A DNA stretch of 34,055 nt from Candidatus Thalassarchaeum sp. (GCA_022449845.1 JAKUOE010000005.1:1-34055); one strand, 5' to 3'. Counted from the stretch's first letter, positions 3,505 to 31,681 are shown. The notes: generated by a model from the letters alone, not told the origin. Made by a program: numbers and translations.

Positions 3505-4241
3505 GCATTCGTCTGAGGGACATCTTCTATTGAACGTTCACCCGGCTTGCCGTAGGTGAAGAACCACAGCAATCCGAGAACACAGGCCCATTGAATGGGA
3601 GTGAGACCCAGTAATTCGACCGGAGTCGTGTCCTTGATTGAATCCACGATGATGCGCCAGATGAGATACAGCACCATGAACATCTGGAAGCGTTGACCGA
3701 TGAGTGGAGTCTCCCATTTCTCAAGGAATGCCCAGATCGCCCCCAATGCTAGAATTCCATACAATTGAGTCGGATGTCGAGGGCCATCACCGAAATCAAC
3801 ACCCCATGGTAGATCTGTGTGGTATCCATAGGTTGCATCGGGTAGACCTGTCAAGAAGCAACCAATTCGACCGATGGCCATTGAGATGATGAGAGGGGTC
3901 ACGTAGACGTCCCCGGTTCGCACCGTGATTCCGAGGATCTTCTTGGTAATCTCAATCCCAATGGTGCCACCCAACAATCCGCCAACGATGGTCTTCCCAC
4001 CAACGAAAAGAATCGGGACATCAGAACCAATTTGATTTGAATGCTCGAGGAGAGCCAACAATCGAGCACCGAAGAGTGCACCCACCAAGGCAGCGAGAAT
4101 TAACCAGGCCCGATGTTCGCTGTCGACCGTGTCACCATGCAAGCGGCGCTCGCGCATCAGGAATGTGAAACCGGCCACATATCCCAGTAATTCGAAGACC
4201 AGATGGGCAGGAATACCCCAGAAGTCGACAGGGAAGTCCAC
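3501..4241 (-). CDS. Prolipoprotein diacylglyceryl transferase (Lgt)-family membrane protein
   Basis: Multi-TM protein with GGKTIVGGLLGG, IGRIGCFLTG, LPWGVDFGDG and HPTQLY. Start preferred at GTG 4241 (MDFPVDFWG), about 25 bp below a TATA-like box; the ORF track gives 4259. Confidence 0.85.
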   Translation of the reverse strand: MDFPVDFWGIPAHLVFELLGYVAGFTFLMRERRLHGDTVDSEHRAWLILAALVGALFGARLLALLEHSNQIGSDVPILFVGGKTIVGGLLGGTIGIEITKKILGITVRTGDVYVTPLIISMAIGRIGCFLTGLPDATYGYHTDLPWGVDFGDGPRHPTQLYGILALGAIWAFLEKWETPLIGQRFQMFMVLYLIWRIIVDSIKDTTPVELLGLTPIQWACVLGLLWFFTYGKPGERSIEDVPQTNA

Positions 4242-4263
4242 GCCTATCGGTCGGACCACCGGT

Positions 4264-5133: not shown

Positions 5134-5943
5134 TTATCGCTGACAACTCCCACAATAGAAGGTGGAGCGACCCGATTGAACGACCCTTTGAATCCAATTT
5201 GAGCACCCAAGAGAGATGCATTCCTCACCTTCTCTGTCGTACACTGCGAATTCGTGTGGAAAATAACCCAATGTCCCGTCGACCTGGCGAAATTGGCCGT
5301 CTCGAAGCGTCGAACCGCCCGCTTCGATTGCTGTCAACAAGACGGTGCGCGTCTCATCGTGAATGGCGGTGGCCTGTTTCTTTGAGATGTTCTTCGCGAG
5401 CCGTCTTGGTGAGATGCCGGCTCTGAACAAAATTTCGCTTGCGTAAATGTTGCCGATGCCGACAATGATTTTCTGATCCAGCAATGCGGTCTTGATGGAG
5501 ATGTTTCGGGCTCGCAGAGATTCGTGAAGATACTGAGCATTCCATTCATCGCCAAGGGGTTCAGGGCCCAAGTGGTCAAGCAAGGGATGATTGCTGCCGC
5601 CCCGAATCAAATCCTTGATTCCGAATCGACGAGGGTCGGTATACACCAGTCGTGAACCATCGACGAAGTCGACCACGACGTGGTCGTGCTTTCCCTCTAA
5701 TGAGTGACCGAAACGTCCAGTCATCCCAAGATGGGCGAGCCAAGTCAAATCGTTTTCCAATCGAATCAACAGATACTTCGCTCGACGATCGATGCCGAGG
5801 ATTTTGTGACCGGCGATGGAATCCATATCTTCTGGAAATGGGAAACGAAGGTCTGGGCGATTGAGTTCCACAGAAAGGATTCGCTTGCCGACATGAATCA
5901 AGAGACCGCGGCGCACCGTCTCAACTTCGGGCAACTCCGGCAT
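5134..5943 (-). CDS. mutM: Formamidopyrimidine-DNA glycosylase / AP lyase (Fpg)
   Basis: N-terminal MPELPEVET, RRAKYL, HLGMTG, DPRRFG, H2TH GIGNIYASE and C-terminal zinc finger ...RSTFYCGSCQR. Confidence 0.97.
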   Translation of the reverse strand: MPELPEVETVRRGLLIHVGKRILSVELNRPDLRFPFPEDMDSIAGHKILGIDRRAKYLLIRLENDLTWLAHLGMTGRFGHSLEGKHDHVVVDFVDGSRLVYTDPRRFGIKDLIRGGSNHPLLDHLGPEPLGDEWNAQYLHESLRARNISIKTALLDQKIIVGIGNIYASEILFRAGISPRRLAKNISKKQATAIHDETRTVLLTAIEAGGSTLRDGQFRQVDGTLGYFPHEFAVYDREGEECISLGCSNWIQRVVQSGRSTFYCGSCQR

Positions 5944-6610
5944 CAGTACACCACATGGAAAAGGACGTGTTGGTTTTCCCAGCCAGAGAGATCGATTCTC
6001 TCCACCAAGGTGAACCCTGAATCAATCAGGGATTGTTCTGCGTGATTGAACGCCCCGGCTGTATCACGCTCACTGGCGGATTTCAGAGAAAGTATTCCAG
6101 TTCCACCGGGAGCCAAGAATTGATGACAAGATTCGATGAACATCTCAACTTGACCTGATTGTGAGACATCTTGGAACAGCCATGGAACTTTGGTTGTGAC
6201 AAATGGAGAAATTTGAGTAGAATTGCGACAGTCCGCCAAAATCGGAAGGATGCCTGGGCGAGTCGAGGATAGACGAATGATATCACGAATGCATCGTGAA
6301 GAGATATCGACGGCAACAATCGACCCACCGAGGTGATTCTTGGACGCGCACACATGATCGTGCAGGTGACTGATGGTCGTCCCGTGCCTGAACCGAGATA
6401 CAGACATGTTGCGCCAGGTTCGGGGAGCAGGCCACGTTCGCTGGCTTTCAACAATCCAGCACCAAGTTTTGAGGCACGGGGATTCCATTGACGCCACTCC
6501 TTTCGTCCATCTCGCTTGAGACGCTCACCCCGGAGACTGGTGCCTTTCACGGCATTTCTAGACCACAAACTTCGGCCATCGATTCGGACTCGATCAGAGA
6601 AGGTTTTCAT
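5943..6610 (-). CDS. flpA: Fibrillarin-like rRNA/tRNA 2'-O-methyltransferase, interrupted by a 1-nt frameshift at about 6387
   Basis: N-half (WRQWNPRASKLGAG...CLYLGSG) is in ORF 6083-6721 from ATG 6610 with a GGTGA SD. C-half (HGTTISH...VAVDIS...PILAD...FQDVSQ...SLKS) is in ORF 5943-6497. It lies directly downstream of nop5. Confidence 0.9.
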
Positions 6611-6614
6611 TGAA

Positions 6615-7601
6615 TCACCGTCGACTTCTACGAGCCCGAATTTCACCCACTTTCTTCTCGACTTCGGCGACTTGTTTCGAAGTCCACGGTTCGCCCCCAA
6701 AGTGGTCCACTCGGGCGGCAATGGCTACCTTTGATGCAAGCATTCGGGCGATGGGACCGCGGGTCCATTTTGGGCTACGACTAATCCAATGATGTTGAAA
6801 GATGTGACCATGCTTGGGTGGATTGGTGCCTTGACGAAGGTGCATGAAGAAGGCCTTCTCTGCACCAAGAATCTGGATGGTACTGGCTGGAAGTCGGGCC
6901 AGACGAGCCCGCCCATGTGCGGTCGTACACAACTTGGCAGCCAATAGTGGTCCAATCAGAGCGGATAGTGAAGGTAAGTAAGCAAGCGATAATTCGCTAA
7001 CCGAATCCTCCAATTTCCCCACGATAGTGGTGAGATCCACTGCCGATTCAGCCAACGAATGGAGACCGGACCACTCCTTTGTGCCAACATCAACATCAGC
7101 CGATTTGACCTCTAGAAGTTCAGATAATTCCTGTAGATTCGATGAGGCGGCGATTGCGGAAACGATGGAAGGACGGTGTTCATCCAAATTCAAGGTTGGG
7201 AGAAAGAGACCGACCCATTCTACAAGGTTTGATTCAAGTGAGTTTTGGGATACACGAGCTTCATCCAACGCCCTTGAAAGATACTCTAGGCGGCGGTCAG
7301 GATCGGCGGCCGTCTCTGCAACACCCCGCTCTGCAAGTTTCAGTGATGCCTCCTGTAACAAAGCGGAGGAGGAGGCATCCAACTCTGGCCATGAATCGAA
7401 CGACACGGGTTGCGATGTCTTCGCGTCGGGAAAACGATCTGCAAGCGTTCGAGCCTCAGGGGTCATCCGACCTTCCATGAGCAAAGAGAGGCGCTCGACC
7501 AAGGCTGAAGTGCTTTGAACACCATCCCATATACACTCGTCAATGATACGTTCATCATCATCGTAAACGCGAGCCAATCGCCAATCCCACACCAGTTGCA
7601 C
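6615..7601 (-). CDS. nop5: Box C/D sRNP core protein Nop5 (Nop56/58)
   Basis: LPSLSALIGPLLAAKL, LARLPASTIQILGAEKAFF, PPKHGHIFQH and IARMLASKVAIAARVD; adjacent to fibrillarin. Confidence 0.95.
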   Translation of the reverse strand: MQLVWDWRLARVYDDDERIIDECIWDGVQSTSALVERLSLLMEGRMTPEARTLADRFPDAKTSQPVSFDSWPELDASSSALLQEASLKLAERGVAETAADPDRRLEYLSRALDEARVSQNSLESNLVEWVGLFLPTLNLDEHRPSIVSAIAASSNLQELSELLEVKSADVDVGTKEWSGLHSLAESAVDLTTIVGKLEDSVSELSLAYLPSLSALIGPLLAAKLCTTAHGRARLARLPASTIQILGAEKAFFMHLRQGTNPPKHGHIFQHHWISRSPKWTRGPIARMLASKVAIAARVDHFGGEPWTSKQVAEVEKKVGEIRARRSRR

Positions 7602-13069: not shown

Positions 13070-13831
13070 TCATACGATTTCAATCAAACGAGAAAAACCG
13101 AAGGCGAAGGCGCGGCCATCCAACAATTCTCTCCAATAATGTGCTTCAAGGCGATAGCCATGACCATCATGTGACAGCACGATTTCATCACGATTCAAAA
13201 CAGAAAAAGACTGAGGGGCAATGTGCATTCCCAATCCAGATGCCTTCTGAACGGCCTCTTTGACCACCCATGTGCGGGTCGCTTCCTGAATCCCCACTCT
13301 TTGATCGATGTCCCACAATTGTTCAAGATACTGCAATTCTTCTCCAGATGTCATCATCGTCAAGAGATTTCGTGGACGAGGTGCATCCAAGGGTTCGGCA
13401 TCCAAACCAATCATTGAACCATTCAGAGATACTGCGGCAATCGAAATACCGTTGGAATGACCCAAAGTAATCTCGGACAACTTCGGACTCAGTGGACCAC
13501 CAGCACGCTCTCTGGCCTCCTGGTCTCTCCACATCAAAATGGGTTTTCGATGCTCATCCCGCACCACCCGTAGATCGAAAGGGTCGAAGCCGAGGTCCCG
13601 AAGAAGAGTGGCCAATGCATAACGAGCAGAGGCGTGTTCCATGGCTCGCTTAGCTGTGGCAAAAGTCGATGCTTCAAATGGGTCCACGAGCGGTAAATCT
13701 GACAATGTTGGTGCAGAATCCTCAGGATTGGGGTGGCCAACAGGCATCCAAACTGCGATGACGGTGTCGCCGCCACACGATTCAGGAAGGGGGAGAGGAG
13801 AAACAAGGCCTGATGGTCGCCATTTCACCAT
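13070..13831 (-). CDS. 4'-phosphopantetheinyl transferase (Sfp-like)
   Basis: HRKP, ITLGHS, IGLDAE (GxDxE) and WVVKEAVQKASGLG (WxxKEAxxK); GGTGA SD; directly downstream of the megasynthase. Confidence 0.9.
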   Translation of the reverse strand: MVKWRPSGLVSPLPLPESCGGDTVIAVWMPVGHPNPEDSAPTLSDLPLVDPFEASTFATAKRAMEHASARYALATLLRDLGFDPFDLRVVRDEHRKPILMWRDQEARERAGGPLSPKLSEITLGHSNGISIAAVSLNGSMIGLDAEPLDAPRPRNLLTMMTSGEELQYLEQLWDIDQRVGIQEATRTWVVKEAVQKASGLGMHIAPQSFSVLNRDEIVLSHDGHGYRLEAHYWRELLDGRAFAFGFSRLIEIV

Positions 13832-13868: not shown

Positions 13869-16800
13869 TTATTTCTCCTTTCTATTGAGGTTGAATCTCA
13901 ATTCCTCAGGGACCGGAGCCATACCTTTGAGACGGAGGCCTCGAAGTGACACCAGAGGTTTCTGATTTCGATCGAACACCATCGCATCATGAATCGTGAT
14001 TCCGTCGCTCTCCTGTCCACGACGGTAGCTTCGAACTCGCAAATCATCACGTAGAGAGGGAATCTTCAGAATCTCGCATTCCTCAATTCCAATTGGTAGG
14101 CTCGACAGATTGTCCACTTCCATTGCAACCAAACCTGCATTCTGGAAGCAAGCCTCAATGAGAAGTGGTAATGATTCCAGAAGCACAGGTTCTTCCTCAA
14201 ATAATTGTGAATTCGGGAGTTGACTGCGGAGCAGGGCAATTCCATCAGCACCCAAATTATCTCCGTCCGATACACCCTTGATGAGTGCACCATGGACCTG
14301 GAAGCGCGGTCCATGGAAGAAGCGGTCGTAAACGAAACTCGGTTGGAATGAGGCCTTGCCCTTTCCAGGTAGATCCGTGAAAGCCATCGGTGAATCTCTC
14401 TGAGCACCCTCCTTGAGTAAACGAACCATGGCCTGATGATGGACGAGAGGTTCCCCGAATATCTCTCCTTTCGAATTCACAAGATCACTTTCAAGATGGC
14501 ACTGGATGAACAGGGAATTGTGATCTTGTCCACTGAATTGAGCCCGGACACGAACACGGGCTTCCTCTTTCATCAATTTGATTGGAAGACCAAATTGAAC
14601 ATCGGAGAATCCCTCCAAATTGCACATCGGATAAAGCAACAGAGAACTCTGAGCAAACATTTCCATTGCCATCACACCAGGGTGGTAGGGGGTGCCTTCA
14701 ATCGAATGATCAATGAGGAAAGGGAATCTTTCAGAAGAGAGTGTGCACTCTGTGATAATCTCGGAATACGGTTCGTGTGTGATGATTCGATCGACGAAGG
14801 GGAAGCGCTCGGGTTCAGCGAGGGCTCCAGCGGTATCGGTCGGAAATTTCTGAGGCGGAGCGCGCTTGCAATTCTCATCATCTAGGATGCCTAAGGCACC
14901 TGCAACAACCACGCGACGTTTCCCTCCAGAAAGCATCTCTTGTACGAACAAATCGACTCCTGTTTCAACCGGAATCATCTCAATCCCGGCTTGCTCAAAC
15001 ACAGATTCGACCGAACCTCGAGTTGCCATGCCTACATCACTCCAACCCGACCACGCAATTGCAACCGCACGAGGGGCATCTTCGTGATGTGCAATGCGGC
15101 ACATTTCAGCATCGAGAATGTTGTTAGCAGCTGCATAATCGACTTGGCCGCCGTTTCCGAATCTGCCCGCGATTGAGGTGAAGGCACAGAGAACGCGTAA
15201 CTGGTCGATTTCATCGCCTAAAGCGTCCACTAAAGCCCTCCAACCATCAATTTTCACAGATATTACCGATGAGAATGTCTGCCATGATTTGTCTCCAACG
15301 AGTTTGGAATCTTCAAGGCCTGCACCGTGTACAAGTCCAGTGATTGTGCCGCATTCCTTCCCCACCGCTGTGATTACCTTGGAGACGGAGCGAGAATTCG
15401 TGACATCGCAGGCATCGTACAAAGCACGGTTGCCCGTCGCATGAATGTCCCGCATCGTTCGATGAATCTCCAGACTGCGCAGTTGTTTGTTCCACTCACG
15501 ATCCCATTCGACCATGGTGACTTTCCCCGAATCACTCTGAGAAATCATGTCCTCACGAAGTTCCATCTTACGTGCTTGCAAAGTGGATTCATCGTCTTCT
15601 AGCCATTCCTCGATAGAAGAATCAAGACGGGTGCGACCAAGAAGAATGAAGGTTGCACCGACGTTTTGACTCGCCTCTGCAACGCCAACGATACACCGTG
15701 CTGTGACACCTGAACCCCCTCCAGATATGACCCATACATCATCATTCTGAAGGGATTGAATTTCGTCGGTAAGATCTTCCTCATACAAACATAGAGTCCA
15801 GCGATTTCCGTCTCGTGACAAACCTACTTCTAGAGGTGAATTTCGGCCAAACGCCTCAGCCCATATCTGATGAGCGAGGGCGGTGGGGTCCGACAGGAGT
15901 TCGGGATCCACGTCGATGGCGCGGCAACGCAAATGTGGCTGTTCCTTGGCATATGACTTGACGATACCATGGGAACCGGCCGCGAGGGCGTTGAAACGGC
16001 TACCAGCATTGCCATGGCGACCATCCATTGCGCTGACAGACATGATTGTGCCGTCGGCAATTGAACTGAAGTGGGAATCCAGGGATTTCAGTAATCCAAA
16101 CAAACCATGTGTCGTCGATGTGAGGTGAGCCTGCTGTGTCTCACTTTCCCAACCCACACCTGCAAGACGGAGAGGGGCGAGGTGGAGAAGTGCGGCAACA
16201 TCACCAATTCTTGCGAGATGAGAACTGACTTCAGCCAATTGATCATGATTGCCGGGGTCGACACGAATGATGTCGACGGGACCGTCCTTCTCAATCTTGA
16301 TTTTGGAGACAATACTGGGGTCTAGCATGATTCGGACGGTGTCGATACCAGCAGCTTCCAGAATATGACACAATGTGTCTGCAACACCCCACGGGTCGTC
16401 GGTTACTGCGATAACCCTGCCATCGATATCAAGTGGAGTATTGGCTTCAGGAGGAATCGCCTCCGCCTCAACCTGCCACCGTCGGACGCCAAGAGATTCT
16501 GGTTGGATGGAAGGAGTTGGTGGATCAGGTTCAGAGATGATTGGTGGGGCTTCTATGGATTCAGGAGGGTCAGAATGTGATTCATCCTGACCCAAATATG
16601 CAATCATATGATTGAGAGTCGGGTGCTCACTCAAAACGAAAGATTCGTCCACCGGTAATCCGTAGAAATCACGGAGTTCAGCCATAATTTCGGCCTGCTT
16701 CACTGTGTCAATTCCGAGTTCACCCTCAAGATCCTGATCCAATTCGATGAAATCTTCAGGGTATCCAGTGTGTTTGACCACAACCTCGACCACTTTCGCA

Positions 16801-19800
16801 GCAACATCACCAGAGATTGGAGCCGTTGACAGTTGAACAACTTCCTCTTCCACAATGGGTTCAGGCTCGGGAAGAGGGATATCTTCTTGTTTTGAAGGAG
16901 AGGATTTAGGGGGAGAGAATGTGGACCAAGTAGTTCCCTGAACACCACCAATTATTTTCTCATCCGGATTGATATAAGCGACAAGTTGTCGGTTGAGAAT
17001 ACGCAGATCCACATCTCCATCACTCGCTTTACTCGCCCAGATGGCTACGTGTTCCCGATCCACGCGATCGAGGTTCGTAGCCATGCGCTTGACCATCGTG
17101 AACGCCATTTGCGAGCCAAATCCAGCGGCATGTCGAACGACGTACTCAACATCCACAGGACCTCCAGTTGACAGGCGGAGATGGCCCAATTCCGGATCGG
17201 GTTCCTTGAAATTCGCGATGGGGGGGAATTCACCCTGACACAGACCGCGAATCGAGACCGCATCTTCGATTCCAGTTCCCATCGGGTGACCTGTGAATCC
17301 CTTCGTGTTCGTGATGATAATCTCCGATGCGCTGTCACCAAAGGTTCTGCGAAGAGCCTGAATCTCCGCTGATGCCGAGCCCCCACGTGGTGGAGTGGCT
17401 GGTTCATGGGACATGAAGGAGGTTCGGGCGGCGATTGTATGACGATTCAGGCCCCAATTCTCTTCCATTTTCGCGATGAAGGTCTCCAACGAATCCGAGA
17501 CATGGTCAACATCTAGGCGGGTTGGGTGGAAGGCTGAATTGGCAAGATGTGTGCCGAGAAGTTCAGCATAGGGTGTAACCCCACGCTCCATTGCTAAACT
17601 GTGACGTTCGAGGACGAATGCGGCCGCACCCATCCCGAGGAGCATGCCATTTCGACGGGCATCGAAGGGGACACTGACTTCATCGACAACATTGCCCATT
17701 GCATGAGCGCCTGCGGCAGCGAAGCCAGCACCAATCCACGTCATCAATTCATCACTGGTTGAATCATCGGCACTGACGATGATGACTCGGTCGCAACGAC
17801 CTGTAGCCAACCAATCTTCTGCGATGGCGATTGCAGAGGGTGTCGAGGCGCAGGCATTGTTGACGGAAGCATTGGGTCCCCGTGCCCCAATCCATTGAGC
17901 AAATTGCGAATGACCCATGGTGAGAATCTGCAGTAGGAAGCGCCGGTCGAAATTGCCATCCTCATCCGCTCCATTGTTCTGCGCGTGCCGCATCGCTTGA
18001 TCGATTCCAGGGAAGCATGAGGCGAAGAGGACACCGGTACGGTCCCTCTCTGAGTCGGGCAAATGCCAATGTTGAATCAAACGCTTACCGGCTTTGTTAA
18101 TCTGTTCAACAGCCAGCAATGGTAAGCCTGCGTCCTTGAGTGCTTCAAGCCCAGCAGCCAGAGCGAGAGAGGTTGTGATATCCATCGCTTCGACAATCTT
18201 CGGATCCAAGCCATACTGTTCGGCCAAATCGAAGTGGCCCCGCCGCCCTGCTAGTTGAGGAATCAAGGTGAAATCATCACAAGGAACGAATTCGGCAGAA
18301 CCATCGGGGTGTTTGATAATTCGAACTAGATTTCGATCGAGGAGGCGTTGTTTGACGTCATCAGAAAGTTCGGAAATGAAATTCTCTCCACGGATTATCC
18401 GATCCAATGCATCGGGTGAGAATACCTCCTCCATTCCAGGCAATCCAAGGCTGAGTCCACTGAATACATAGGGGTCTCTGCGCCGAGCAGAAAGCGGATC
18501 TTCCGAGGTATGTATTCGCCGGTCGCTGAGGGTCTGAACTGAGATAGAATGGCCTTGTGGAACCTCAGCCAACCATTCGACGAGGCCTGGCAGTGTTGTT
18601 GCATTTGTACTGCCTTTGACTTGGTATTTGGACTGAATTTTCTGATGAATCTCTGATATCTGTACATCATTCAATCCGATTGTAAGCAAATCTGTCGAGC
18701 CGTGAATCATTCGTACAGGGAAGCCACTAACATCAGATACGATTCTTGCAATCGCAGACTCCTTGGACATCCGGTTGGCTTCATCCTGCTCCTCTTCAGT
18801 CATCACTGAAACCGGTGGAGGTGAGGAAGTGGGTGGTGCCGCTGGAATGACATGAGTCGGGGTAGATGTTCGGACACCGGCTCGGAAAGCCTCAGTGAGA
18901 ATGTCACTATTTGCATCCGGAATCTGCGGTATGCGGCCGGATAGCGCATGCAGTGCGAGAGCAGCATGGAAGGAGGCAATGCCGCCAACCTTGGGATGAT
19001 TGGTATTGGCGATAATCTTCGGTCGATCTTCAAATATCTGTTCGGCAAAGAGAGCTAGGGCTCGCTTGGGGCCAACTTCGATGAACATGCGAGCCCCGCC
19101 CTCGTACATCGTCTCCATCTGCTGTGTCCATTCGACGGCGGAAGCCATCTGTGGAGCGAGTTTGGCCAATATTGCTTGCTTGGCACTGCTGCCTGCTGGA
19201 GCGACATTCGGGTACCAACCGCCATCGAAATTCGAGGTGATTGGAATATTCGGCAATCGAATATCCAAACCCTCAAGGAAAGCGCGCAATGGTTCGTTCG
19301 CTGGGGCTACGATTCTGGAATGGAATGCATGACTGGTTTGTAGTTGTACACAGGAGACTCCGGCGTCATCGAAAGCCTTCATCACCCGCTTCATCGGTTC
19401 GGTCTCTCCGGCAATGACGGTCATTTTCGGACTGTTCTTGTTGGCGGCAATGACGTAACCATCTTCTGCTTCCAACACGGCTTCAATCTGTTCATAGGGA
19501 GCGGAGACTGAAGCCATGATTCCAGTGTCCTGGACCTCGACGTTGCCCATCTCAGTACCTCGTGCTGCGACGGCACGAAGAGCCGAGTCGAAATCGAGAA
19601 TGTCTGCAACCATCAGGGCCGCATACTCCCCCAGTGAATGGCCAGCAACCATGTCGGGTTCAAGTCCGTGCGCCTTGAGGAGACGATGGATGCCGAGGTC
19701 GGCCGTGAGCATCGCGGGTTGTGTGTACTCTGTTTGTTTGAGTTTGAATTCTGCATCTTTCTTCTCATCCTCAGTCAGATTCTCTCGAAGCACGAAGGAG

Positions 19801-19985
19801 GACAGAGTTTCACCTTCGAGAACTTCAATCATGGTCTGATCCGCTTCATCCCAAGTCTCTCCAATACAACGATACCGTTTGGAGAGGTCAAGGGTCATGC
19901 CGACATACTGGCTACCCTGCCCTGGATAGAGTTGAGCAACCTTGGCCTGTTCGGGCAATGGTGCAGTGTCGGTAATCATGACCAT
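13869..19985 (-). CDS. Type I FAS/PKS megasynthase, C-terminal part: AT-(degenerate ACP)-KS2-ACP-KR-DH
   Basis: AT: YPGQGSQ, GHSLGE, SHAFHS. KS2: NACAS, [68 protein letters not shown]. Same frame as 20160-21812. Confidence 0.92.
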   Translation of the reverse strand: [2038 protein letters not shown]

Positions 19986-20159: not shown

Positions 20160-21812
20160 TTAATCGAAATTCGAACCACTGAAAAGTTCAGCCCTTATGG
20201 AGGAAAGTTTGGCGGTTAGTGCTTCCAAATCGGGAGCGTTGACCAACAGGACGCCGCCTTCAATCTCCTTCAATTCAGCGTGTGAGAAAGTGGCTGTTGA
20301 TGAGAGTGTAGTTTGCGCAGAAGTCCCCGGGTTCAACCAAGCATTGCGACGGGTGTCGAACTCGTTGGCGAGAAGGGAATGGAAATCTCGATCGTAAGCT
20401 TCCAGTGCACAATGGAAATTCGTCCCTCCAAAACCGAAGGAAGAGACGCCAGCGCGGCGAGGGTGTCCGTTTGGAGCCAACCACGATTTGGGTTCAGTGG
20501 GAACATAGAATGGATTCGTTTCCCAATCGATGTTCTCGTTCGGTGTGGAAAATCCGGCACTTGGAGGAATCGTGCCTGTTTCAACTGCCCGAATCGCCTT
20601 GACAAGGCCGGCAATTCCGGCGGCGGCCTTGAGATGACCGATTTGACTCTTGATTGAACCCACGGCGACGTTGTCGCCCGGAGGTGTGTTGGTAAATGCG
20701 GCAGAGAGACTGGTCAACTCTGTTGCATCACCGACGACTGTGGAGGTCCCATGAGCTTCGATTAATTCGACTGTCGAAGAATCGTAACCAGCCTGCATGT
20801 ATGCCCGACTTACCGCTTGAATCTGGCCGCGGGTGCTCGGTGCAGTGATGCCTTTACCGCGACCATCACTACTCGCACCCACTCCACGGATCACCGCTTG
20901 AATGGAGTCGCCATCACGAATCGCATCGGAGAGTCGTTTCAATGCGAGGGCGCCCGACCCCTCACCCATGACAAAACCGTTCGCCTGAGAATCGAAGGGT
21001 GTTGAATGCGTGGCTGAAAGTGCGCCAATGGCGCTGAATTTTGCAAATGTAGCTGGATCCATGGTTCGATCGCTAGCGCCTGCAATCATCATGTCCACTT
21101 GGCGTGTCTGTAGTAGCCTGCAAGCGTCTAGAATGGCAGCAAAGGTGGATGCACAAGCAGCATCCGTGGAATAATTCGGACCTTGAAGGTCGAGGAGGTT
21201 GGCGACCCTACCAGCCACAACATTCGCGAGTTCGCCTGGCATTGTATCCTCAGTGACAAGGGGGAGGCCGTCGAGAATCGCGTCCTTGAACGCCGCCTTT
21301 CCTTCACTCGGCATCCCTCCCGCCTCGACAGCGTGACGTGCGAACTGATCAGCCCACACACGATGATTGGTCAGATTTCGATTCTCTCCTCCTAGAGCAT
21401 TTGCGAAGATTACACCGGTCCGCTCCCGAGGTAATTCACGGGCTCCTTCACCCATGTATCCTGCATCTTCCAAAGCGGCTGCACTGACGGTGACTGCCCA
21501 CTGTTGTGTTGGATCAATTTGAGGAAGAGAACCAGGGGGGATTCGCCAGCGGCGCCAATCAAATTCAAAATTTTCAACCCATCCACCAATCTTTGAGTAG
21601 GTCTTGTTCTCATCGACATTCTTTGGTCCCCCCTCAACCCAGAAATCAGAAGATACCCATCTGTTTTCGGGAACCTCCTTGAGTGAGACATGAGCAGACA
21701 AGATATTCGCCCAGAATGTTTGAAGATTCGGTGCATCGGGCAACAGAGTCCCGACACCGATTACGGCAATCGGTTCAAACGGATCCTGTGGATGTTCGTC
21801 AGGGATTGTCAA
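20160..21812 (-). CDS. Type I FAS/PKS megasynthase, N-terminal ketosynthase (KS1, PfaA-like); continues in frame past one TAA into 13869-19985
   Basis: EPIAVIG, IDPTQ, TDAACAS (Cys), EAHGTST, GSIKSQIGHLK and GVSSFGFGGTNFH. TTG start with a GAGGCGA SD; 58 open codons link the stop to the next ORF. Confidence 0.92.
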   Translation of the reverse strand: MTIPDEHPQDPFEPIAVIGVGTLLPDAPNLQTFWANILSAHVSLKEVPENRWVSSDFWVEGGPKNVDENKTYSKIGGWVENFEFDWRRWRIPPGSLPQIDPTQQWAVTVSAAALEDAGYMGEGARELPRERTGVIFANALGGENRNLTNHRVWADQFARHAVEAGGMPSEGKAAFKDAILDGLPLVTEDTMPGELANVVAGRVANLLDLQGPNYSTDAACASTFAAILDACRLLQTRQVDMMIAGASDRTMDPATFAKFSAIGALSATHSTPFDSQANGFVMGEGSGALALKRLSDAIRDGDSIQAVIRGVGASSDGRGKGITAPSTRGQIQAVSRAYMQAGYDSSTVELIEAHGTSTVVGDATELTSLSAAFTNTPPGDNVAVGSIKSQIGHLKAAAGIAGLVKAIRAVETGTIPPSAGFSTPNENIDWETNPFYVPTEPKSWLAPNGHPRRAGVSSFGFGGTNFHCALEAYDRDFHSLLANEFDTRRNAWLNPGTSAQTTLSSTATFSHAELKEIEGGVLLVNAPDLEALTAKLSSIRAELFSGSNFD

Positions 21813-21821
21813 TATCTCGCC

Positions 21822-22613
21822 TCAGTCACTGATGCTATCTGGAACCATCGTGCTGGAGTATCCAGCATCGACGTGAATCACTTGTCCTGTCACGCCGGAA
21901 CCTAGCGGGCTTGAAAGCCAAACTGCACAACCGGCAACATCGTCTTGGTTGACATTGCGGCGCAGAGGAGAATTGCGTTCGACATGATCCAATATGTCGT
22001 CGAAACCAGGGATGCCGCTCGCAGCCAAGGTTCGAATCGGACCAGATGAAATGGCGTTGACACGATGGCCGTCCTCACCGACTCGCATCGCCAATTCTCG
22101 AACCCATGCCTCAAGGGCGGCCTTGGCGATGCTCATGACACCATAATTGGGGACATAACGAGTGCTCGCAGCATAGGTGAGGGTGATCGTCGATGAATTC
22201 TCTGCTAGATGGGGCAAGGCATGACGCATGACACGTTGAAGAGAATGGGCGGAAATCGTCATCGCGATATTGAGGGGTTCATCTTCAACGAATAGCATGT
22301 GTCGATCAAAACATTCGCTCGGTGCGAAACCAATCGCATGGATGATGATGTCTGCCTTTGAACCGGGCGCTGCCTTCTGCCATTCCTGGAAAAATTCCGC
22401 TGTTGTCTCTTCAGAACCGACATCGATAGGATAGAATGCCTCGATGGCCGAAAGTTTGTCTTTGAGTTGGAAAACACGGCTCATGAATCGCTTCTGATAT
22501 CCAAGGATGAGTTTGCATCCGGCTTGCGCCAATCGATTGCAAATTGCCCAGGCAATTGAATCCTCAGATGCAACACCAAACACCAGTGCAGTTTTTCCTT
22601 CAAGTTGCAACAT
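21822..22613 (-). CDS. fabI: Enoyl-ACP reductase (FabI-type SDR)
   Basis: GVASEDSIAWAI, HAIGFAP, ISAHS, TLTY, PNYGVMSIAKAALE (YxxMxxxK), RVNAISSGPIRTLAASGI and VTGQVIHVDAG. Confidence 0.95.
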   Translation of the reverse strand: MLQLEGKTALVFGVASEDSIAWAICNRLAQAGCKLILGYQKRFMSRVFQLKDKLSAIEAFYPIDVGSEETTAEFFQEWQKAAPGSKADIIIHAIGFAPSECFDRHMLFVEDEPLNIAMTISAHSLQRVMRHALPHLAENSSTITLTYAASTRYVPNYGVMSIAKAALEAWVRELAMRVGEDGHRVNAISSGPIRTLAASGIPGFDDILDHVERNSPLRRNVNQDDVAGCAVWLSSPLGSGVTGQVIHVDAGYSSTMVPDSISD

Positions 22614-24927: not shown

Positions 24928-27900
24928 TCATTCTTGGCTGGCGAGCCACTCTTCGAGTTGCTCAACATTCCAGCCTTGATCGAAGTAGCCCTGAATCGTC
25001 GCCTCATCCCAGAACGGGAATTTCTCCTTGGCGATGTCCATCGGGCTCTTCGCAGCCGCAGGTGGGCCACGTGAAGCACCAGGTGGACCACGTCGGTCAC
25101 CGGCTCGGGTCGCGGGTGGACCCCGACTTCGCATCGGTTCAACGGCCTGGGCGGCTGGGAGGAAATCATCTTCCTCGATGTATTCGAGTTCATCGTCCTC
25201 AACGGTTCGGTTGAGAACGAGCAGTACGATGACGACAGCGACGATGAGGAGGGCAACGATGCCAGCAATACCAACGAGCAGCATGGTGTTCCCACCTTCA
25301 TCACTTTCAGCGAACTTCGCAACATTGAACGAATCGATAGAAGCGATTTCTTGATTATTCATGTCCAAAATAACGTAACTGACATTGATTGCCGCATTCG
25401 GGAATTGATCCATCGAAATTCGCCAACGTGTATCTTCTCCAGGTTGTACACTGAACGGACAAGTGTAAGTGACTGGGGAACTGGCTTCATCGCCAATCCA
25501 TGTCACGATTTGAATCTCCAGAACACCTTCCTTGTTGCCATCATTCTGGAAGTCAATCAACAGATCAAAGTCTGTCTGAGCCATGGGTTTGTCGACCGAC
25601 ATATCGACCCGACTGATGGTGAACTGTGCAGACTCATACGCCAACTCATAGGTACCTGCACCACTGTTGACTGAGGTTCCAAAGGAACCCGCGCCACCGA
25701 TGGTTTGTCCAGATGAATCATAACCAGTCAACCAGAATTTGACAATCACATTGTCCATGTCCTCAGGAATGGGTTGTGTTGAGGGCCATAGATCGAAACA
25801 AGTGGATGTCGCCCGAATCTGACCTTGTGACGATTCAAGGTACAGTGGAGTGCTTTCCCAACCTTCACCGTCTTCAAATGTGTTCAGATATTCAGTCCAG
25901 TTATACTCGAATCCACCGACTTCCTGTGTCTTATAGAACATCCAGTTCAATGAAACAGAATCCGTATCCATGCCTTGTAATTCGTCAATGAGAACCTCTG
26001 CATCGAGACAATTCATGACCGATGAAGAGATGCTCCCTTCTAACGTCTCACCCGTCACAGAATTCGAAAGATCCCACGACCCGAACACTGTGTCAGGCCT
26101 GTCACCATCGACCTTCACGATGAATGAACGCGATGGGGCAGGCGTATTGTCAACTGCACCATTGGGCAGACCGAGCAATTCCAATGTGTAACTGTACTCA
26201 TTGGTAGCATATGCTGCGGGCACCACCAATTGGAAAGAACCGTTCTCAAAGTCGTATTCGTTCACTTCGACCAGTGCGGGTGAATAACCACTGTCGGGCA
26301 AACCAGCTGGATAGAGAGGGGAGCGAGTGACCTGCAGACTGAGAGGAATCTCGGGGCTGACGAAGATCAAATCATTCATCCCTGCGCTGAACACATATCG
26401 GCCTTCAATGACCAAGATGTCGCCTTGATAGACGAAGCCACCAGATGCTGTGCCGACGCCGTCGGTCGGGAACCCGGAGGTGTCCTCAACAGAGAAAGTC
26501 GTTGTATCGAGTTCAATTCCACTCGAGTACGACCATCGCTGTGGATTTCGAGAGGCACTGATGTGGACCTCGTTGTTGTTCAAATCCTTGTCCTTCATTG
26601 CGATATCTGGTGTCTTCACACCACCGACGTAGCCAATGGGTATAGCCCACTCCATTCGAATTGGTACATCGAGGGTGAATTGCTGTTCGAAGGGTGAAAT
26701 CAAGATATTTCCTTCGCGCGTCAGCATGCGTGGTTTGATTCCTGTATTTTCATAATCATCTAGAATTTCAATCCAGGTGCTTTCAGTCCATGCCGTGTCA
26801 TTCTGTGGTGAATAGAACATCTGGATACAACCCTCTGGGTCGTAGGATGCTCCGGCTTCGTTGCAGATTTGTGGATTGAGGGTGATGGTAATCGTCTCAA
26901 CATCCTGCCAACCGTTGTCATCCTTTCCATCGACCAGCAAGTGATACACGTTGCCAGCGTAAAGGGACCGATTGTTTTCATTCAACATCGTGCCATGCGA
27001 ATCCGAGATTCGGAAGGCTTCGACAAGAGGTGTGCGGCTTTCCATCGCAATGTAGGTGACCGTGTCCGCGTTGATTCCAGGTCCACCGCCATCGATTTGA
27101 TTGCCACCGATGTCTGAACCGGAGACGAATAGACTGACCATCTGAGGTGGATCGATTCCACTGTTGGCATAATCACTGATACATTCACACGGATGATCAA
27201 TGAGGTAGTATGAGGTGTCCGCTTCAGTTTGACGTGCAAGGGTCATCTGCGAATACTCGTTCAGTTGTGCTTCTCGGTCCATCTCGCCCGTATCGGGCGC
27301 AACGTATGAGGGTACACCTGGACAGAGGCCGTCGAGTCCACAGTCATCCGATGCCTCGACCCAATAATTGAGGGTCAGAGTCTCGGGGGCGAGAGGTAGG
27401 TCCTGAGCAGCCACTCGGAATTTCTGGTTGTTACTCGCCTTCACCCAAGTGTCGTCAGTGAGTTCTCGCCAATCGCCCTGCACACTGTACACGGAGATAT
27501 TCATCAGATGAGGTGAGAAGGGGTCCAATGTGATTGTGAATCGAATCGCACAGTCACTGTCTGGATTGAAACTCTCAGGAGGACAGAGCAAATCGCCATC
27601 GGTGTAATTGTGAATCAACAATCGATACTGTTCCACACCAGCCTCTGATGCTGGAAGATTTGGTTGCCATGAATAATCGCCATCGATGGTCGCAGGTGTG
27701 GAATCCACAAACAACCAATCTTCAAACATGATTTCGGATTGGTTCCGCTTCTCCAACTTGACCGTGTAACTGTTCGGATTTGGAGCAACATCCAGATCTT
27801 CGTATCGAACATTGAAGTCCAGTGTAATCGTGTTGCTTGAGAAGGCATTGGTCAAATCAGTCTGTTCAACACCACCTTGGTTGAAGAGGGTGAAGTCGGT

Positions 27901-30807
27901 CATTCCTGCGTCATTCTCAACAGCATTGCCGTAATCGGGTTGGATTAGATTCCCCGCAGGCAGACCACTGACACCCGTGTTGGATATCGCGGATGCGTAC
28001 AGGCGCACGTTGGGAGTATCCTCCCATGTGGGGTTGACTCGGAAGCGCCAGTTGAGTTGCTTGGCACCATCATCTCCATCGGTCGCAAGAGATTGCATGT
28101 ACATGAAGTCTAGATTATCATGGACATCGCTCTCTTCCCAGAAGCTGCCGTTGGATGCATCCCATCGCAATTCCATGTTTCCGTTGGCCGTCTCAAACAG
28201 AAGGCTAGCCCCACCCAAGGTTTGACCTGTGGATGCAGCGACAGAGTGCGTGGTCACAATCTCAATGATGTCACCATTCGGGTACATTCCCGTGATTCCA
28301 CCGTCACCATAGGTTGAATCGTAACCACTCGTGGTCGAGATGGATAGAGAGGACAAGGAGATTGAACCACCCGAGCCACCGACGATTCGCATCGGGACAA
28401 TCACGTTTCCAGTGGCGCCTCCACTGCTTGCGAGTGCGACACCTTGATTCAGTTCACGTGCGATATTGTTGGAACCGCTGATTGCACGTTCCCAGTCGTA
28501 AATGATGTCGAGATCACGGAATGTGATACTCCCACCGCCCGAAGACGGTGCGTCGATACTCAAACGGAACAAACACCATTCATTGCCATATTGGTCAATC
28601 CAAGCCACCGGCACCAATGGGTTGTCGAGTAGGCTCTGGATGTTGTCCTGAATCGATGCTAGAGGGCTCTGGGGGTAGGGTATGAGTATAGGACCTTCGT
28701 CGATTGAACCCAGACTCACTTCCTCAGTACCACTGAGAAGAGACAAATCGAAGGCACCGATTCCATTATTCTCAAAATTCAATTCTGCATAATGTACAGT
28801 CGCGCCCTTGGGGAGGAGGAAGGGGGCACCTTGACCTTGATTATTGGTACCGAGACTGATTGTACGATTGGGTGAACCTTCATTCACACCATTGACAACC
28901 CCCGTTCGGAACATGTCCTGGCGACCGAAGCTACCGAACGCTGGATCGGTCATCCCCCATTCGATGTCGCTATCTGCCGCAACATCGAGTGTGATACCAC
29001 GCGAGTGGTGGGCAAAGCGGTATTCAACATGGAATGAGTAAACCTCACACATGGATGTGTAATTCGCCAAAACACCTACCATGAAACTCGGGGCTGAGAG
29101 TTCTGACCACGTATCGTTGGCCAGTTGGATGGAAGACTCATCAGCATTCAGACTCATTCCCATCAAGAAATTGGGACCGCCACAATTGTCCACGATGACG
29201 GGCTTCATGGCAACAACAGGCATTGAGAAATCAGTCCGAACCACAGGATCTGGGGATACGATAGAACCGTCGTGAATCGCCGATGAAATCATCACATACG
29301 AGCCTTCACTCATGGCTGATGTCCATTTATCACCACTGTACATCCCTCCATCCCAGAACACGCCATCCGTGTTGCGGAAATTGGTTCCAATGATTGTACC
29401 CAATTGGAATCCATACAATATCGGAGTCGACAGACGAGCCGAACCAGAACCGAAAGTGAACTTGAAATCAATCAGTGGGTAAGTATCTGCATTGATATCC
29501 CACAATTCGATGAGGCTCCCTTGGAGATTCGTCATCGCGTCACCATTTCGGTCGATGACAACATTCCCTGTTCCTGCCTCAAGCACATCAACACCGAAAT
29601 CAGCCGATGCGGATTTTTGGAGTTCAAGATTGAGGAGGCCGTATCCATCCGGGAACCCAACTTGACCAGAGGATTGAGGGGCAAAGGAACTCATGATGAC
29701 GTGGCCCTGAGCAGGGAGTGGGTCACCGACACGGACGCCATCGATATACCAACCAGCATTCATCATCTCCTCAGGGAATGCACCCTGTCGAGGATTAACT
29801 TCGTGGATGAAGAGCAATTTTACGAAGCGACCAGCATGTGTCGAAAGGTCGATGCGGATGTCAGACCATCCACTTGGAGAGTTGGAAGTGGTCGAACCAT
29901 TTCCTCCGAGGACATAAGCACCGGCGCCAGGGCCATTGGTCCCAAGGTAATCACATCGATTGGTGGGGACTTGGTTGACAGATGTACCCAATTGGTACAT
30001 GCCATCGCCTACAGAGACTCCGGTGGTGGCTCCGACATCGATGGGTGCGAAAACCGCATTCTGGAAATCGACATCGTTCGTAGAATTCTGTACGGCAACA
30101 TAGGCACAATCATCGTAGTAGTACGTTTGTGAACCCTCAGATGCCTCACGGTAGAACAGAGAATGGAAACTCTGGAAGGAAAGATCCGCCTTACCGGGGT
30201 GAACGAAGAAGGAGGCACTGGTGAGAACCATCTCAAATTGGCCATCGGGAAGACTTGCAGTGTAATCTGGATTTTCAAAATCCGTACCCCAACACCAATC
30301 ACCGACTCCACAACCCGTTGATAGAACGTTGTTGTCTTGGTGATCATGTGCCCAATTTGCAATCAGAGGCTGAATTCCTTGATCGGGGCCAGCAGACCAG
30401 CCCTCTGGATTCGCTTCAAAATCAGCGTTGAAACCTTGACTGGTCAGTTTCAGGTATTCTTGGTCTACAGTGAAATCGATTCCAGAAGAGAACTGAGTCA
30501 TCCCTCCATTGTAAAGTGGATTCCAAATCTCACCATTGGCGACCAGTGAACTGTCAATGACCTGAACGTCATCATGTTCAGCATAATCGGTGCCTACAAT
30601 GAAGCCGGCGGCATTGACCGTTTCACCGGCTGGCATACTGATGCCAGCCGTCAAGTCATCGCCCCAAGTTCCTTGATCACGGAGTTCAACATCCACTTCG
30701 GAATCGCCATTTGCAAATGTGCTAATCGTAGCCGCATGAACCAAGGTGGTAGAGAATACCATCAAGCAAATCATGGCCAACGATAGTGTGCGCGTTCGGG
30801 TTATCAT
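24928..30807 (-). CDS. Giant acidic cell-surface protein: signal peptide, beta-rich domains, C-terminal TM anchor and cytoplasmic tail
   Basis: 1959 aa; N-terminal signal peptide (MITRTRTLSLAMICLMVFSTTLVHA); Asp/Gly/Ser/Thr-rich body; CARDB/Ig-like segment (FQNDGNKEG); TM helix; acidic and Pro/Arg tail ending GYFDQGWNVEQLEEWL. Confidence 0.88.
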   Translation of the reverse strand: MITRTRTLSLAMICLMVFSTTLVHAATISTFANGDSEVDVELRDQGTWGDDLTAGISMPAGETVNAAGFIVGTDYAEHDDVQVIDSSLVANGEIWNPLYNGGMTQFSSGIDFTVDQEYLKLTSQGFNADFEANPEGWSAGPDQGIQPLIANWAHDHQDNNVLSTGCGVGDWCWGTDFENPDYTASLPDGQFEMVLTSASFFVHPGKADLSFQSFHSLFYREASEGSQTYYYDDCAYVAVQNSTNDVDFQNAVFAPIDVGATTGVSVGDGMYQLGTSVNQVPTNRCDYLGTNGPGAGAYVLGGNGSTTSNSPSGWSDIRIDLSTHAGRFVKLLFIHEVNPRQGAFPEEMMNAGWYIDGVRVGDPLPAQGHVIMSSFAPQSSGQVGFPDGYGLLNLELQKSASADFGVDVLEAGTGNVVIDRNGDAMTNLQGSLIELWDINADTYPLIDFKFTFGSGSARLSTPILYGFQLGTIIGTNFRNTDGVFWDGGMYSGDKWTSAMSEGSYVMISSAIHDGSIVSPDPVVRTDFSMPVVAMKPVIVDNCGGPNFLMGMSLNADESSIQLANDTWSELSAPSFMVGVLANYTSMCEVYSFHVEYRFAHHSRGITLDVAADSDIEWGMTDPAFGSFGRQDMFRTGVVNGVNEGSPNRTISLGTNNQGQGAPFLLPKGATVHYAELNFENNGIGAFDLSLLSGTEEVSLGSIDEGPILIPYPQSPLASIQDNIQSLLDNPLVPVAWIDQYGNEWCLFRLSIDAPSSGGGSITFRDLDIIYDWERAISGSNNIARELNQGVALASSGGATGNVIVPMRIVGGSGGSISLSSLSISTTSGYDSTYGDGGITGMYPNGDIIEIVTTHSVAASTGQTLGGASLLFETANGNMELRWDASNGSFWEESDVHDNLDFMYMQSLATDGDDGAKQLNWRFRVNPTWEDTPNVRLYASAISNTGVSGLPAGNLIQPDYGNAVENDAGMTDFTLFNQGGVEQTDLTNAFSSNTITLDFNVRYEDLDVAPNPNSYTVKLEKRNQSEIMFEDWLFVDSTPATIDGDYSWQPNLPASEAGVEQYRLLIHNYTDGDLLCPPESFNPDSDCAIRFTITLDPFSPHLMNISVYSVQGDWRELTDDTWVKASNNQKFRVAAQDLPLAPETLTLNYWVEASDDCGLDGLCPGVPSYVAPDTGEMDREAQLNEYSQMTLARQTEADTSYYLIDHPCECISDYANSGIDPPQMVSLFVSGSDIGGNQIDGGGPGINADTVTYIAMESRTPLVEAFRISDSHGTMLNENNRSLYAGNVYHLLVDGKDDNGWQDVETITITLNPQICNEAGASYDPEGCIQMFYSPQNDTAWTESTWIEILDDYENTGIKPRMLTREGNILISPFEQQFTLDVPIRMEWAIPIGYVGGVKTPDIAMKDKDLNNNEVHISASRNPQRWSYSSGIELDTTTFSVEDTSGFPTDGVGTASGGFVYQGDILVIEGRYVFSAGMNDLIFVSPEIPLSLQVTRSPLYPAGLPDSGYSPALVEVNEYDFENGSFQLVVPAAYATNEYSYTLELLGLPNGAVDNTPAPSRSFIVKVDGDRPDTVFGSWDLSNSVTGETLEGSISSSVMNCLDAEVLIDELQGMDTDSVSLNWMFYKTQEVGGFEYNWTEYLNTFEDGEGWESTPLYLESSQGQIRATSTCFDLWPSTQPIPEDMDNVIVKFWLTGYDSSGQTIGGAGSFGTSVNSGAGTYELAYESAQFTISRVDMSVDKPMAQTDFDLLIDFQNDGNKEGVLEIQIVTWIGDEASSPVTYTCPFSVQPGEDTRWRISMDQFPNAAINVSYVILDMNNQEIASIDSFNVAKFAESDEGGNTMLLVGIAGIVALLIVAVVIVLLVLNRTVEDDELEYIEEDDFLPAAQAVEPMRSRGPPATRAGDRRGPPGASRGPPAAAKSPMDIAKEKFPFWDEATIQGYFDQGWNVEQLEEWLASQE

Positions 30808-30916: not shown

Positions 30917-31582
30917 TCAAACAGTGTTCAATGAACGGATTCTCAATGATTTGAGGCAATCTTCAACCAAGCCATCGAGTCCGCCTTGAGTGTTCTCATT
31001 GCGGCGTAGGCGATTCAAGTCTGCAACCGTCGTGGGGCGATCAGGACCGAGGGCGTCACACAGTTCTGGGCCCGCGGCAATGTCGTACGTACCAAGTTCA
31101 CGTGCTTCATCGATAATCTCTTGCTTGTCCAATCCAAGTAATGGGCGAAGGATTCGCAAGTGACTCGCTTCCTCAACTGCTCCGAGGTTTCCGAGAGTCT
31201 GACTGCTCACTTGACCAAGGTTTTCACCCGTAAGAATCGCAGTTGCACCGACTTCAGTGGCTAGGGCGCAGCCAATGGCATTGAACAGGCGTTTCATGTG
31301 AACAAAATAGTCGCGGTGTGCTTCCGGTTCTGTAAACTTGGCCAGCGTCTCCCCGACGGTGACGACACGGAGATTCGAATCGATGGAATCGGTCTCCTCA
31401 AGATGGGTAATCAAATGAGATAGGCTGGCCGCGGTCTTGTCCTCAGCCTCACTGCCGGTGATGGGTTCCTGAGAACAGTGTACAGGCACAATATGCCAAC
31501 CGGATCGGGCCATGCGTGCAACGGCAACTGGAGAATCGATGCCCCCGGAAACCAGAGCGATGCAGATCTGTGCATTGGCCAT
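30917..31582 (-). CDS. thiI: ThiI-like PP-loop sulfurtransferase, catalytic domain only
   Basis: SGGIDSPVA PP-loop, TGENLGQVSSQTLGNL and LRPLLGLDKQEII; only 221 aa, with no THUMP or rhodanese domain. Confidence 0.8.
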   Translation of the reverse strand: MANAQICIALVSGGIDSPVAVARMARSGWHIVPVHCSQEPITGSEAEDKTAASLSHLITHLEETDSIDSNLRVVTVGETLAKFTEPEAHRDYFVHMKRLFNAIGCALATEVGATAILTGENLGQVSSQTLGNLGAVEEASHLRILRPLLGLDKQEIIDEARELGTYDIAAGPELCDALGPDRPTTVADLNRLRRNENTQGGLDGLVEDCLKSLRIRSLNTV

Positions 31583-31681
31583 GATGCTGCGTATGGCTTG
31601 ACCTCCATAATGGGATGGGTTGGAGGAAACAAGGTGACAGGCTCAAGAGGGAGGGGCGCAGCCCAATACTCGGAGAGAGAC

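Follow-up and report, generated by a model that had tools for sequence, protein, structure and literature searches.

The phosphopantetheine-bearing Ser residue in the GxDS motif of carrier proteins is treated as invariant, and to our knowledge archaea in general are described as being without an acyl carrier protein (ACP). In this work, we examine an ACP domain, in which this position is occupied by Thr, and which forms part of a megasynthase encoded in a stretch of 34,055 nucleotides from Candidatus Thalassarchaeum sp. (GCA_022449845.1 JAKUOE010000005.1:1-34055). This whole stretch is referred to as the window, all coordinates are those of the window, and the megasynthase cluster, which includes a downstream gene for a 4'-phosphopantetheinyl transferase (PPTase), lies on its minus strand. 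The closest described system is the Type R cluster of Shulse and Allen (2011; PMC3098273), which consists of one pfaA homologue with the domain order KS-MAT-CLF-ACP(3-6)-KR (ketosynthase, KS; ketoreductase, KR) and a downstream PPTase, and for which the product is given as unknown; CLF is the name that these authors use for the position of the second KS. The hosts named in that work are Koribacter, Solibacter, Elusimicrobium and Roseiflexus, and the cluster is thus spread over phyla that are distant from each other, viz. Acidobacteria, Elusimicrobia and Chloroflexi (PMC3098273). As the words "serine" and "threonine" have no occurrence in the main text of PMC3098273, the Thr site is not described in that text. 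A Thr at the phosphopantetheine position is also found in an engineered protein, viz. Escherichia coli ACP (AcpP) S36T, which PMC3340395 employs as one that "cannot be post-translationally modified by 4'-PP"; in E. coli the Ser-to-Thr change thus serves as the standard control for a carrier that is not modifiable.

Comparison of the window locus with the known systems

Judged by its architecture and its downstream PPTase, the window cluster is of a known kind, the Type R secondary lipid synthase. The order KS-MAT-CLF-ACPn-KR is present and its relatives are single open reading frames (ORFs) of 2653-3054 aa; a PPTase gene lies directly downstream in the window, as in the published clusters; and, similar to the published hosts, the ACP motif GIDTVKQAE is found, among the matches listed, in metagenome-assembled genomes named Elusimicrobium minutum, Acidobacteriaceae, Chloroflexia and others. 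However, unlike the Type R clusters as published (PMC3098273), the host is an archaeon (Poseidoniales), a dehydratase (DH) of polyketide synthase (PKS) type follows the KR, a FabI-like enoyl reductase (ER) adjoins the cluster, and a TAA codon separates the KS of the window synthase from the rest, with only one ACP assembled. With PfaA (TIGR02813) the cluster shares the order KS-AT-tandem ACP-KR-DH (acyltransferase, AT), and TIGR02813 is the best NCBIfam match of both window ORFs. The scores of 408.9 and 363.6 bits lie far below the cut-off of 1010.1, and due to this the identification of the window synthase as PfaA was rejected; it also differs from PfaA in having an extra KS-like (CLF) domain, an ACP-like stub and Thr in place of Ser. 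In PfaA the ACP motif is of the type LGIDSIK, with Ser as the main difference. E. coli AcpP S36T is engineered, and it is reported to be non-modifiable and non-functional with the AcpS of E. coli (PMC3340395), whereas the window family occurs in nature, is conserved and is accompanied by an Sfp-type PPTase of its own. Like other Sfp-type PPTases the window enzyme matches PF01648 and retains the invariant His, Asp-x-Glu and W..KEA..K motifs, but it differs from them in being very divergent and in that the sole substrate available to it in these archaea has Thr.

Presence of Thr at the phosphopantetheine position of the carrier domain

Residue 1094 of the 2038-aa megasynthase ORF (13869-19985, minus strand) is Thr. 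Its codon ACA occupies 16704-16706 (the plus strand reads tgt there) in the minus-strand context GAA CTC GGA ATT GAC ACA GTG AAG CAG GCC GAA, which translates to ELGIDTVKQAE (Thr context ELGIDTVKQAEIM). Residues 1064-1131 match PF00550 with 45.3 bits against a Pfam cut-off of 20.8 (39.6 bits in the genome scan), and in the HMMER alignments the Thr falls on the phosphopantetheine Ser of solved ACPs (PigH lgvDSi and lgiDSv; 2n98 gLDSv). In an AlphaFold model of the ACP, built with 56 relatives (pLDDT 84.8), helix II (H45-59) opens with the Thr, and the best Foldseek matches of this model are ACPs only (e.g. 6lvu, TM 0.76/0.88). By its profile and its helical-bundle fold the domain thus belongs to PF00550, and it departs from this family in having Thr in place of the Ser of GxDS. 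An earlier reading of this DNA, made from the sequence only, had placed a Thr (ACA) at 16704-16706 at the phosphopantetheine site, and the translation, the HMMER alignments and the ACP-fold model all confirm this placement. That reading was also right in regarding the domain as the only intact-looking ACP: in the whole 1.65-Mb assembly (81% complete) there is one PP-binding domain above the cut-off, which is this Thr-type ACP, and the sole other signal is a sub-threshold stretch in the same protein with GLND at the corresponding site. A comparable ACP-like stub, reading LGLDQ, is present at the equivalent place in one of the homologues (P0025). A search for an alternative conserved Ser acceptor found none in the invariant or near-invariant columns of the ACP domain, where, besides the motif Thr, only T24 and T74 are near-invariant residues with a hydroxyl group.

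Conservation of the Thr in homologues

In the closest relatives, whose PPTases are 76-83% identical to that of the window, the codons at the position of the window's ACA are ACC, ACT, ACG and ACT. A word-seeded search, in which candidates were found by shared 5-residue words, identified 503 homologues; in 120 of these together with the window protein, Thr was present in 389/391 motif matches, with 3-4 tandem ACPs per protein. As the search words include the motif itself, this count is biased towards it and does not serve as our main count. Due to this, an index-free search was carried out with residues 500-1699, of which the ACP makes up ~7%, against 1.84 billion representatives, and it gave 30,895 matches at E<=0.001. 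When the best 150 of these 30,895 matches were taken together with the window protein, ACP domains were present in 146 proteins; Thr occupied 400 of their sites and Ser 17, while 6 sites were degenerate and 3 were unscored, so that Thr accounts for ~96% of the scored sites in the family. In terms of proteins, 129 of the 146 were Thr-only, 9 had Thr together with degenerate or unscored sites, 5 were Ser-only, 1 was mixed and 2 lacked a scoreable site. In the Poseidoniales (marine group II)-named homologues that were examined, Thr was present in all ACP motifs except those of one Ser lineage.

Further information was provided by a DNA-pattern scan for GIDTVKQAE with one genome per species, which detected at least 120 stretches; the pattern requires Thr, so that only the spread of codons is informative. 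Among the matches listed, all four Thr codons are used (ACG 157, ACC 131, ACT 19 and ACA 16), with 1-6 copies per stretch in tandem, and the hosts according to the record titles are Poseidoniales, Heimdallarchaeum and about 10 bacterial phyla, which include Elusimicrobia, Acidobacteria, Chloroflexi, Actinobacteria, Myxococcota, Gemmatimonadota, Rhodothermales, Spirochaetes and others. The conservation of Thr with all four codons excludes chance and sequencing error as its source, and the Thr of the relatives likewise excludes a private mutation. The view expressed in the sequence-only reading, that carriers of the DTVK type recur in related synthases, therefore holds on a large scale, and the alignment of homologues that it called for shows a conserved DT with varied Thr codons, both in the closest relatives (ACC, ACT, ACG) and over the 400 Thr sites.

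State of the window copy and the possibility of an artefact

The window copy of the megasynthase shows some irregularities. An in-frame TAA at 20160-20162 (minus strand), in the linker between KS and AT, splits it into the 550-aa KS ORF and the 2038-aa ORF; at this position 3 close relatives have GAT or AAT (Asp or Asn), and these are single ORFs of 2653-2764 aa. The number of ACPs assembled in the window is one, against the 1-6 in tandem in homologues. In four public runs the assembled contigs break at 16619 and 16793, and the summed contig depth in the bin 16612-16912 is 3-5x higher, where contig depth is not to be read as copy number; the single ACP is probably a collapsed tandem repeat. 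Elsewhere in the window, fibrillarin is spread over two overlapping frames at 5943-6721 (minus strand), with profile positions 21-84 in the ORF 6083-6721 and positions 82-224 in the ORF 5943-6497, which is an apparent frameshift. The TAA and the split fibrillarin may be due to errors in the assembly, to variation between strains or to genuine decay.

Since ACA is one base from TCA, it could be considered that the Thr is itself an artefact or a private lesion in a decaying gene, and the in-frame TAA in the KS-AT linker, the split fibrillarin and the single assembled ACP are all of the kind that this explanation would lead one to expect. However, the relatives keep Thr with other codons, the residue makes up ~96% of the scored family sites, and the Poseidoniales-named homologues examined all have it, with the exception of the one Ser lineage. 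As far as the Thr itself is concerned this explanation is already refuted, and we give it almost no credence. The caution expressed in the sequence-only reading with regard to lesions in the window was justified, as the TAA between KS and AT shows.

Interchange of Thr and Ser within the family

The 5 Ser-only proteins and the 1 mixed protein show that Thr is not universal in the family, and an interpretation of this kind is also ruled out by a Ser sub-lineage of Poseidoniales and by arrays of the Ser type. In a FastTree tree based on the CLF region (133 rows), each of these six proteins is a lone tip within clades of Thr-containing proteins, and 7 changes are counted for the 7 rows without Thr, among which there is one that merely reflects an artefact of labelling. 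The sister of the window protein in this tree is a Ser form (support 99). This sister lineage is represented by 9 metagenome loci with the motif LGVDSVKQAE (TCT or TCA), 8/9 of which have two copies; its ACPs are otherwise near-identical to that of the window (FDQDLEGELGVDSVKQAEIMADLR vs LDQDLEGELGIDTVKQAEIMAELR), and at 7/9 loci a PPTase is directly downstream in the DNA fetched. Both residues occur together in a Heimdallarchaeum record (L017 / G045:C1:491546-495433), where the tandem ACPs have Ser, Thr and Ser, and the 2729-aa frame also contains a PPTase domain; in the same record there is a second PPTase match 2.5 kb further on. A scan for GIDSVKQAE revealed 64 stretches, mostly from Myxococcaceae, Streptomyces and Firmicutes, and in 8/12 such loci with enough flanking DNA a PPTase is located 2.7-2.95 kb downstream, with the same spacing as for the Thr type.

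In the intact motifs, no Ala or Gly is found at the phosphopantetheine position, and where the residue changes from Thr it changes to Ser only. As Ser and Thr replace each other at one site, the residue in these motifs, so far as the compared sequences go, is always one with a hydroxyl group. Thr is the dominant and, apparently, also the ancestral state in the Type R-like clade. Further, since the Ser forms are scattered tips within Thr clades, and include the sister of the window protein as well as the Ser-Thr-Ser protein, the Thr hydroxyl looks like the working group of the domain. The sequence-only reading had considered that homologues with Ser would speak against its proposal. A few such homologues do exist, but it will be incorrect to interpret them as a sign of error in the window, as they are rare derived tips within Thr clades, which argues instead for Thr as a working hydroxyl.

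The PPTase and its association with the Thr-type carriers

The product of the gene directly downstream of the megasynthase matches PF01648 with 41.5 bits against a cut-off of 25, and it has both the profile and the conserved residues of an Sfp-type PPTase. This gene (13070-13831) is the only PPTase match in the 1.65-Mb assembly. In 42 sequences H125, D144, E146, E192 and K196 are invariant, and the His, Asp-x-Glu and W..KEA..K motifs are kept; these residues probably correspond to the named Sfp residues. The enzyme is very divergent, with no NCBIfam match and no significant match to solved PPTases (the best being 7ed1, E 0.16).

Altogether, 41 Poseidoniales genomes were scanned for PP-binding domains and PPTases. 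Above-cut-off PP-binding matches were obtained in 28 genomes, where they are confined to one long frame, and no genome has more than one PPTase (29 genomes have one). ACP and PPTase are both present in 27 genomes and both absent in 11, while 1 genome has the ACP only and 2 have the PPTase only; in 24/27 of the genomes with both, the two are on one contig, ~3.3-3.9 kb apart. The 11/41 genomes without megasynthase and PPTase (G007, G011, G013, G019, G021, G023, G025, G027, G031, G033 and G035) are from the window's own family and are 91-97% complete, and the cluster is apparently dispensable and lost as a unit. As the carriers are confined to the megasynthase frame and the PPTase co-occurs with them, the Poseidoniales PPTase is, on this genomic distribution, without another detectable substrate and lost together with the synthase. 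Over a broader range, 38 Thr-type loci extend 4.5 kb or more downstream, and in 25/38 of these a PPTase is located 2.5-3.2 kb past the last ACP, a count made with an ad hoc profile that may miss divergent members. Four bacterial genomes that harbour Thr-type arrays additionally have a short AcpS-like gene and a small free ACP, and thus the PPTase of the cluster is an extra, dedicated enzyme in these bacteria.

These results bear on the possibility that the Thr domains fold as ACPs but are never pantetheinylated, serving instead as spacers or in docking or regulation, with the synthase working on CoA thioesters or on an unrecognised carrier. In line with this possibility, AcpS leaves E. coli ACP S36T unmodified (PMC3340395), and degenerate ACP-like domains do occur in the family. 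However, the nine residues GIDTVKQAE are identical, among the matches listed, across archaea and about 10 bacterial phyla, which is far tighter than would be required of a spacer; the co-inherited PPTase would be left without a substrate, as these genomes have no other carrier; and the reversions are to Ser only, never to Ala or Gly in motifs that are otherwise intact. On balance, we consider it unlikely that these domains are never pantetheinylated.

A model of the complex of the PPTase, CoA, Mg and the ACP gave an ipSAE of 0.94, compared with 0.27 for the best control; this mark is reached by 58/80 solved complexes and by 2/110 mismatched pairs. Between runs the contacts agree to at least 98%, with a partner pLDDT of at least 83. 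At the modelled interface, ACP residues 44-46 (D, T, V) face PPTase residues 125-126, 146, 188 and 192, which include the invariant His, Glu and Glu. However, this score supports docking only, and as PPTase-carrier complexes have already been solved, it may reflect likeness to these rather than binding of this particular copy. The model is also relevant to another possibility, viz. that the Thr hydroxyl does work but bears a different group, for example an O-acyl ester formed directly on it or some other phospho-linked cofactor. Nothing speaks directly for such a group, although in the literature searched no precedent for Thr-phosphopantetheine was found. Against it, the neighbouring gene codes for a PPTase of PF01648 in which none of the invariant catalytic-motif residues is missing, the KS, KR and DH are ordinary domains for the handling of thioesters, and in the model, which includes CoA and Mg, the Thr lies in the site of the PPTase. 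Hence, a different group on the Thr appears very unlikely.

Proposed role of the Thr-type carrier

The explanation that we favour, and regard as probable, is that the Thr carries a phosphopantetheine group loaded by the dedicated downstream PPTase. According to this proposal, the domain would function as an acyl carrier in a type I synthase that works iteratively, is similar to fatty acid synthases and PKSs and is of the Type R kind (KS-AT-CLF-ACPn-KR-DH plus a FabI-like ER), with its 4'-phosphopantetheine arm on the Thr hydroxyl at the N-terminus of helix II, in place of Ser. The downstream Sfp-type PPTase would move phosphopantetheine from CoA to the Thr, and the ACP arrays would then serve an iterative cycle of KS, AT, KR and DH, with ER. 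The preference expressed in the sequence-only reading, for a Thr carrier with its adjacent PPTase over a dead domain, is supported by the retention of Thr under synonymous change, the co-inheritance of the PPTase, the interchange of Ser and Thr, and the complex model. We also lean, with less assurance, to a broader proposal, in which O-(4'-phosphopantetheinyl)-threonine is a natural modification of an ancient class of tandem-ACP proteins (Poseidoniales, Heimdall archaea and about 10 bacterial phyla) served by a dedicated PPTase clade, the Thr-type ACP and its PPTase together form a pair that is orthogonal to the housekeeping AcpS and AcpP, and Thr is specifically selected over Ser. The Thr site is an old, family-wide trait that is kept by selection, and the reasons may be such as orthogonality to the housekeeping AcpS, protection against other PPTases or against hydrolases, or greater stability of the phosphodiester linkage.

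Several observations weigh against the loading of the Thr by this PPTase. Both the modification of the Thr and the role of the neighbouring PPTase in it are inferred. At least AcpS rejects Thr, as E. coli ACP S36T is described as non-modifiable (PMC3340395). Plainly dead ACP-like domains are present at 6/426 sites among the best 150 of the 30,895 matches, and since such domains occur in some arrays, an array can carry non-functional copies. A free interchange of Ser and Thr would predict more mixing than the 17/417 scored sites; Thr is strongly preferred, although Ser evidently works. In the PPTase of the Ser sister lineage (L196-L203), the otherwise invariant His is replaced (H125 to T, in the ..SHS.. 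motif, which reads SISTS), among 53 fixed differences from the PPTases that have Thr partners, and no simple specificity rule fits this. In the other PPTases with Ser partners, the residue is Tyr at L145 and His is kept in the rest, and H125T is a single event; no PPTase residue that tracks the Ser/Thr state was found, and the core motifs are shared by the PPTases of Thr partners and of most Ser partners. The window allele may also be damaged or misassembled, in view of the in-frame TAA between KS and AT and its single ACP. Lastly, a full-text literature search did not identify any account of phosphopantetheine linked to Thr or any mention of the DTVK motif, and the Thr acceptor site appears to be undescribed in the literature searched; in the matched genomics literature on marine group II, the terms "acyl carrier protein" and "phosphopantetheinyl transferase" have 0 occurrences.

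If loading of the Thr by the dedicated PPTase is correct, then it represents a new acceptor residue for phosphopantetheinylation, and the carrier and its PPTase would provide a ready-made orthogonal pair for engineering and labelling. It would likewise expose a blind spot of motif-based annotation; in the four bacterial genomes, the Thr-type domains score 27-36 bits on PF00550 compared with 52-62 for the free ACPs. It would also offer a way into the study of a widespread synthase whose product is unknown. In the genomes searched of the marine group II archaea, which are abundant, no ACP-dependent system other than this synthase was found, and this bears on whether these archaea make fatty acids.

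Other features of the window

The features of the megasynthase cluster are listed in Table 1.

Table 1. Features of the megasynthase cluster and its flanking genes, in window coordinates
Feature	Coordinates	Strand	Basis
Sfp-type 4'-phosphopantetheinyl transferase, 253 aa, directly downstream of megasynthase	13070..13831	-	PF01648 1.5e-10
Megasynthase ORF, 2038 aa: AT, degenerate ACP-like stretch, KS-like (CLF), ACP, KR, DH	13869..19985	-	
PKS-type dehydratase, residues 1740-2020	13926..14768	-	PF21089 + PF14765
Ketoreductase, residues 1509-1649	15039..15461	-	PF08659 4.2e-23
Acyl carrier (PP-binding) domain, motif QDLEGELGIDTVKQAEIMA	16593..16796	-	PF00550, ACP fold; single copy assembled
Thr codon ACA, canonical phosphopantetheine-Ser position	16704..16706	-	Translation and alignment to solved ACPs
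Second KS-like domain (CLF)	17082..18260	-	PF00109 2.8e-14, residues 591-797; NCBIfam fabF-type models, 576-968
Degenerate ACP-like stretch, GLND for GxDS/T, between AT and second KS	18615..18755	-	PF00550 17.3-17.5 bits, sub-threshold
Acyltransferase (malonyl-CoA:ACP transacylase-like), residues 19-319	19029..19931	-	PF00698 3.1e-34; TIGR00128 fabD 8.3e-58
N-terminal ketosynthase, separate 550-aa ORF, same frame, directly upstream; fused in relatives	20160..21812	-	
FabI-like enoyl reductase, directly upstream of KS	21822..22613	-	PF13561 4.8e-68; FabI NCBIfam ~1e-67, all below cut-offs

A thioesterase of the 4HBT family, which is a candidate for the chain-release enzyme, is encoded at 31478-32137 (plus strand), ~10 kb from the synthase. 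A protein of 1959 aa, encoded at 24928-30807 (minus strand), has a hydrophobic stretch at its N-terminus, a membrane anchor at its C-terminus and a tail rich in Pro, Arg and Gly, and a Pfam search with it gave no match. The window also contains genes for PCNA, fibrillarin, Nop56/58, TFS and TBP, which identify its host as archaeal. Further, at 2002-4259 (minus strand) a homologue of prolipoprotein diacylglyceryl transferase (LGT), which is an unusual gene for an archaeon, adjoins a radical-SAM protein with a zinc ribbon of the HMPTM type.

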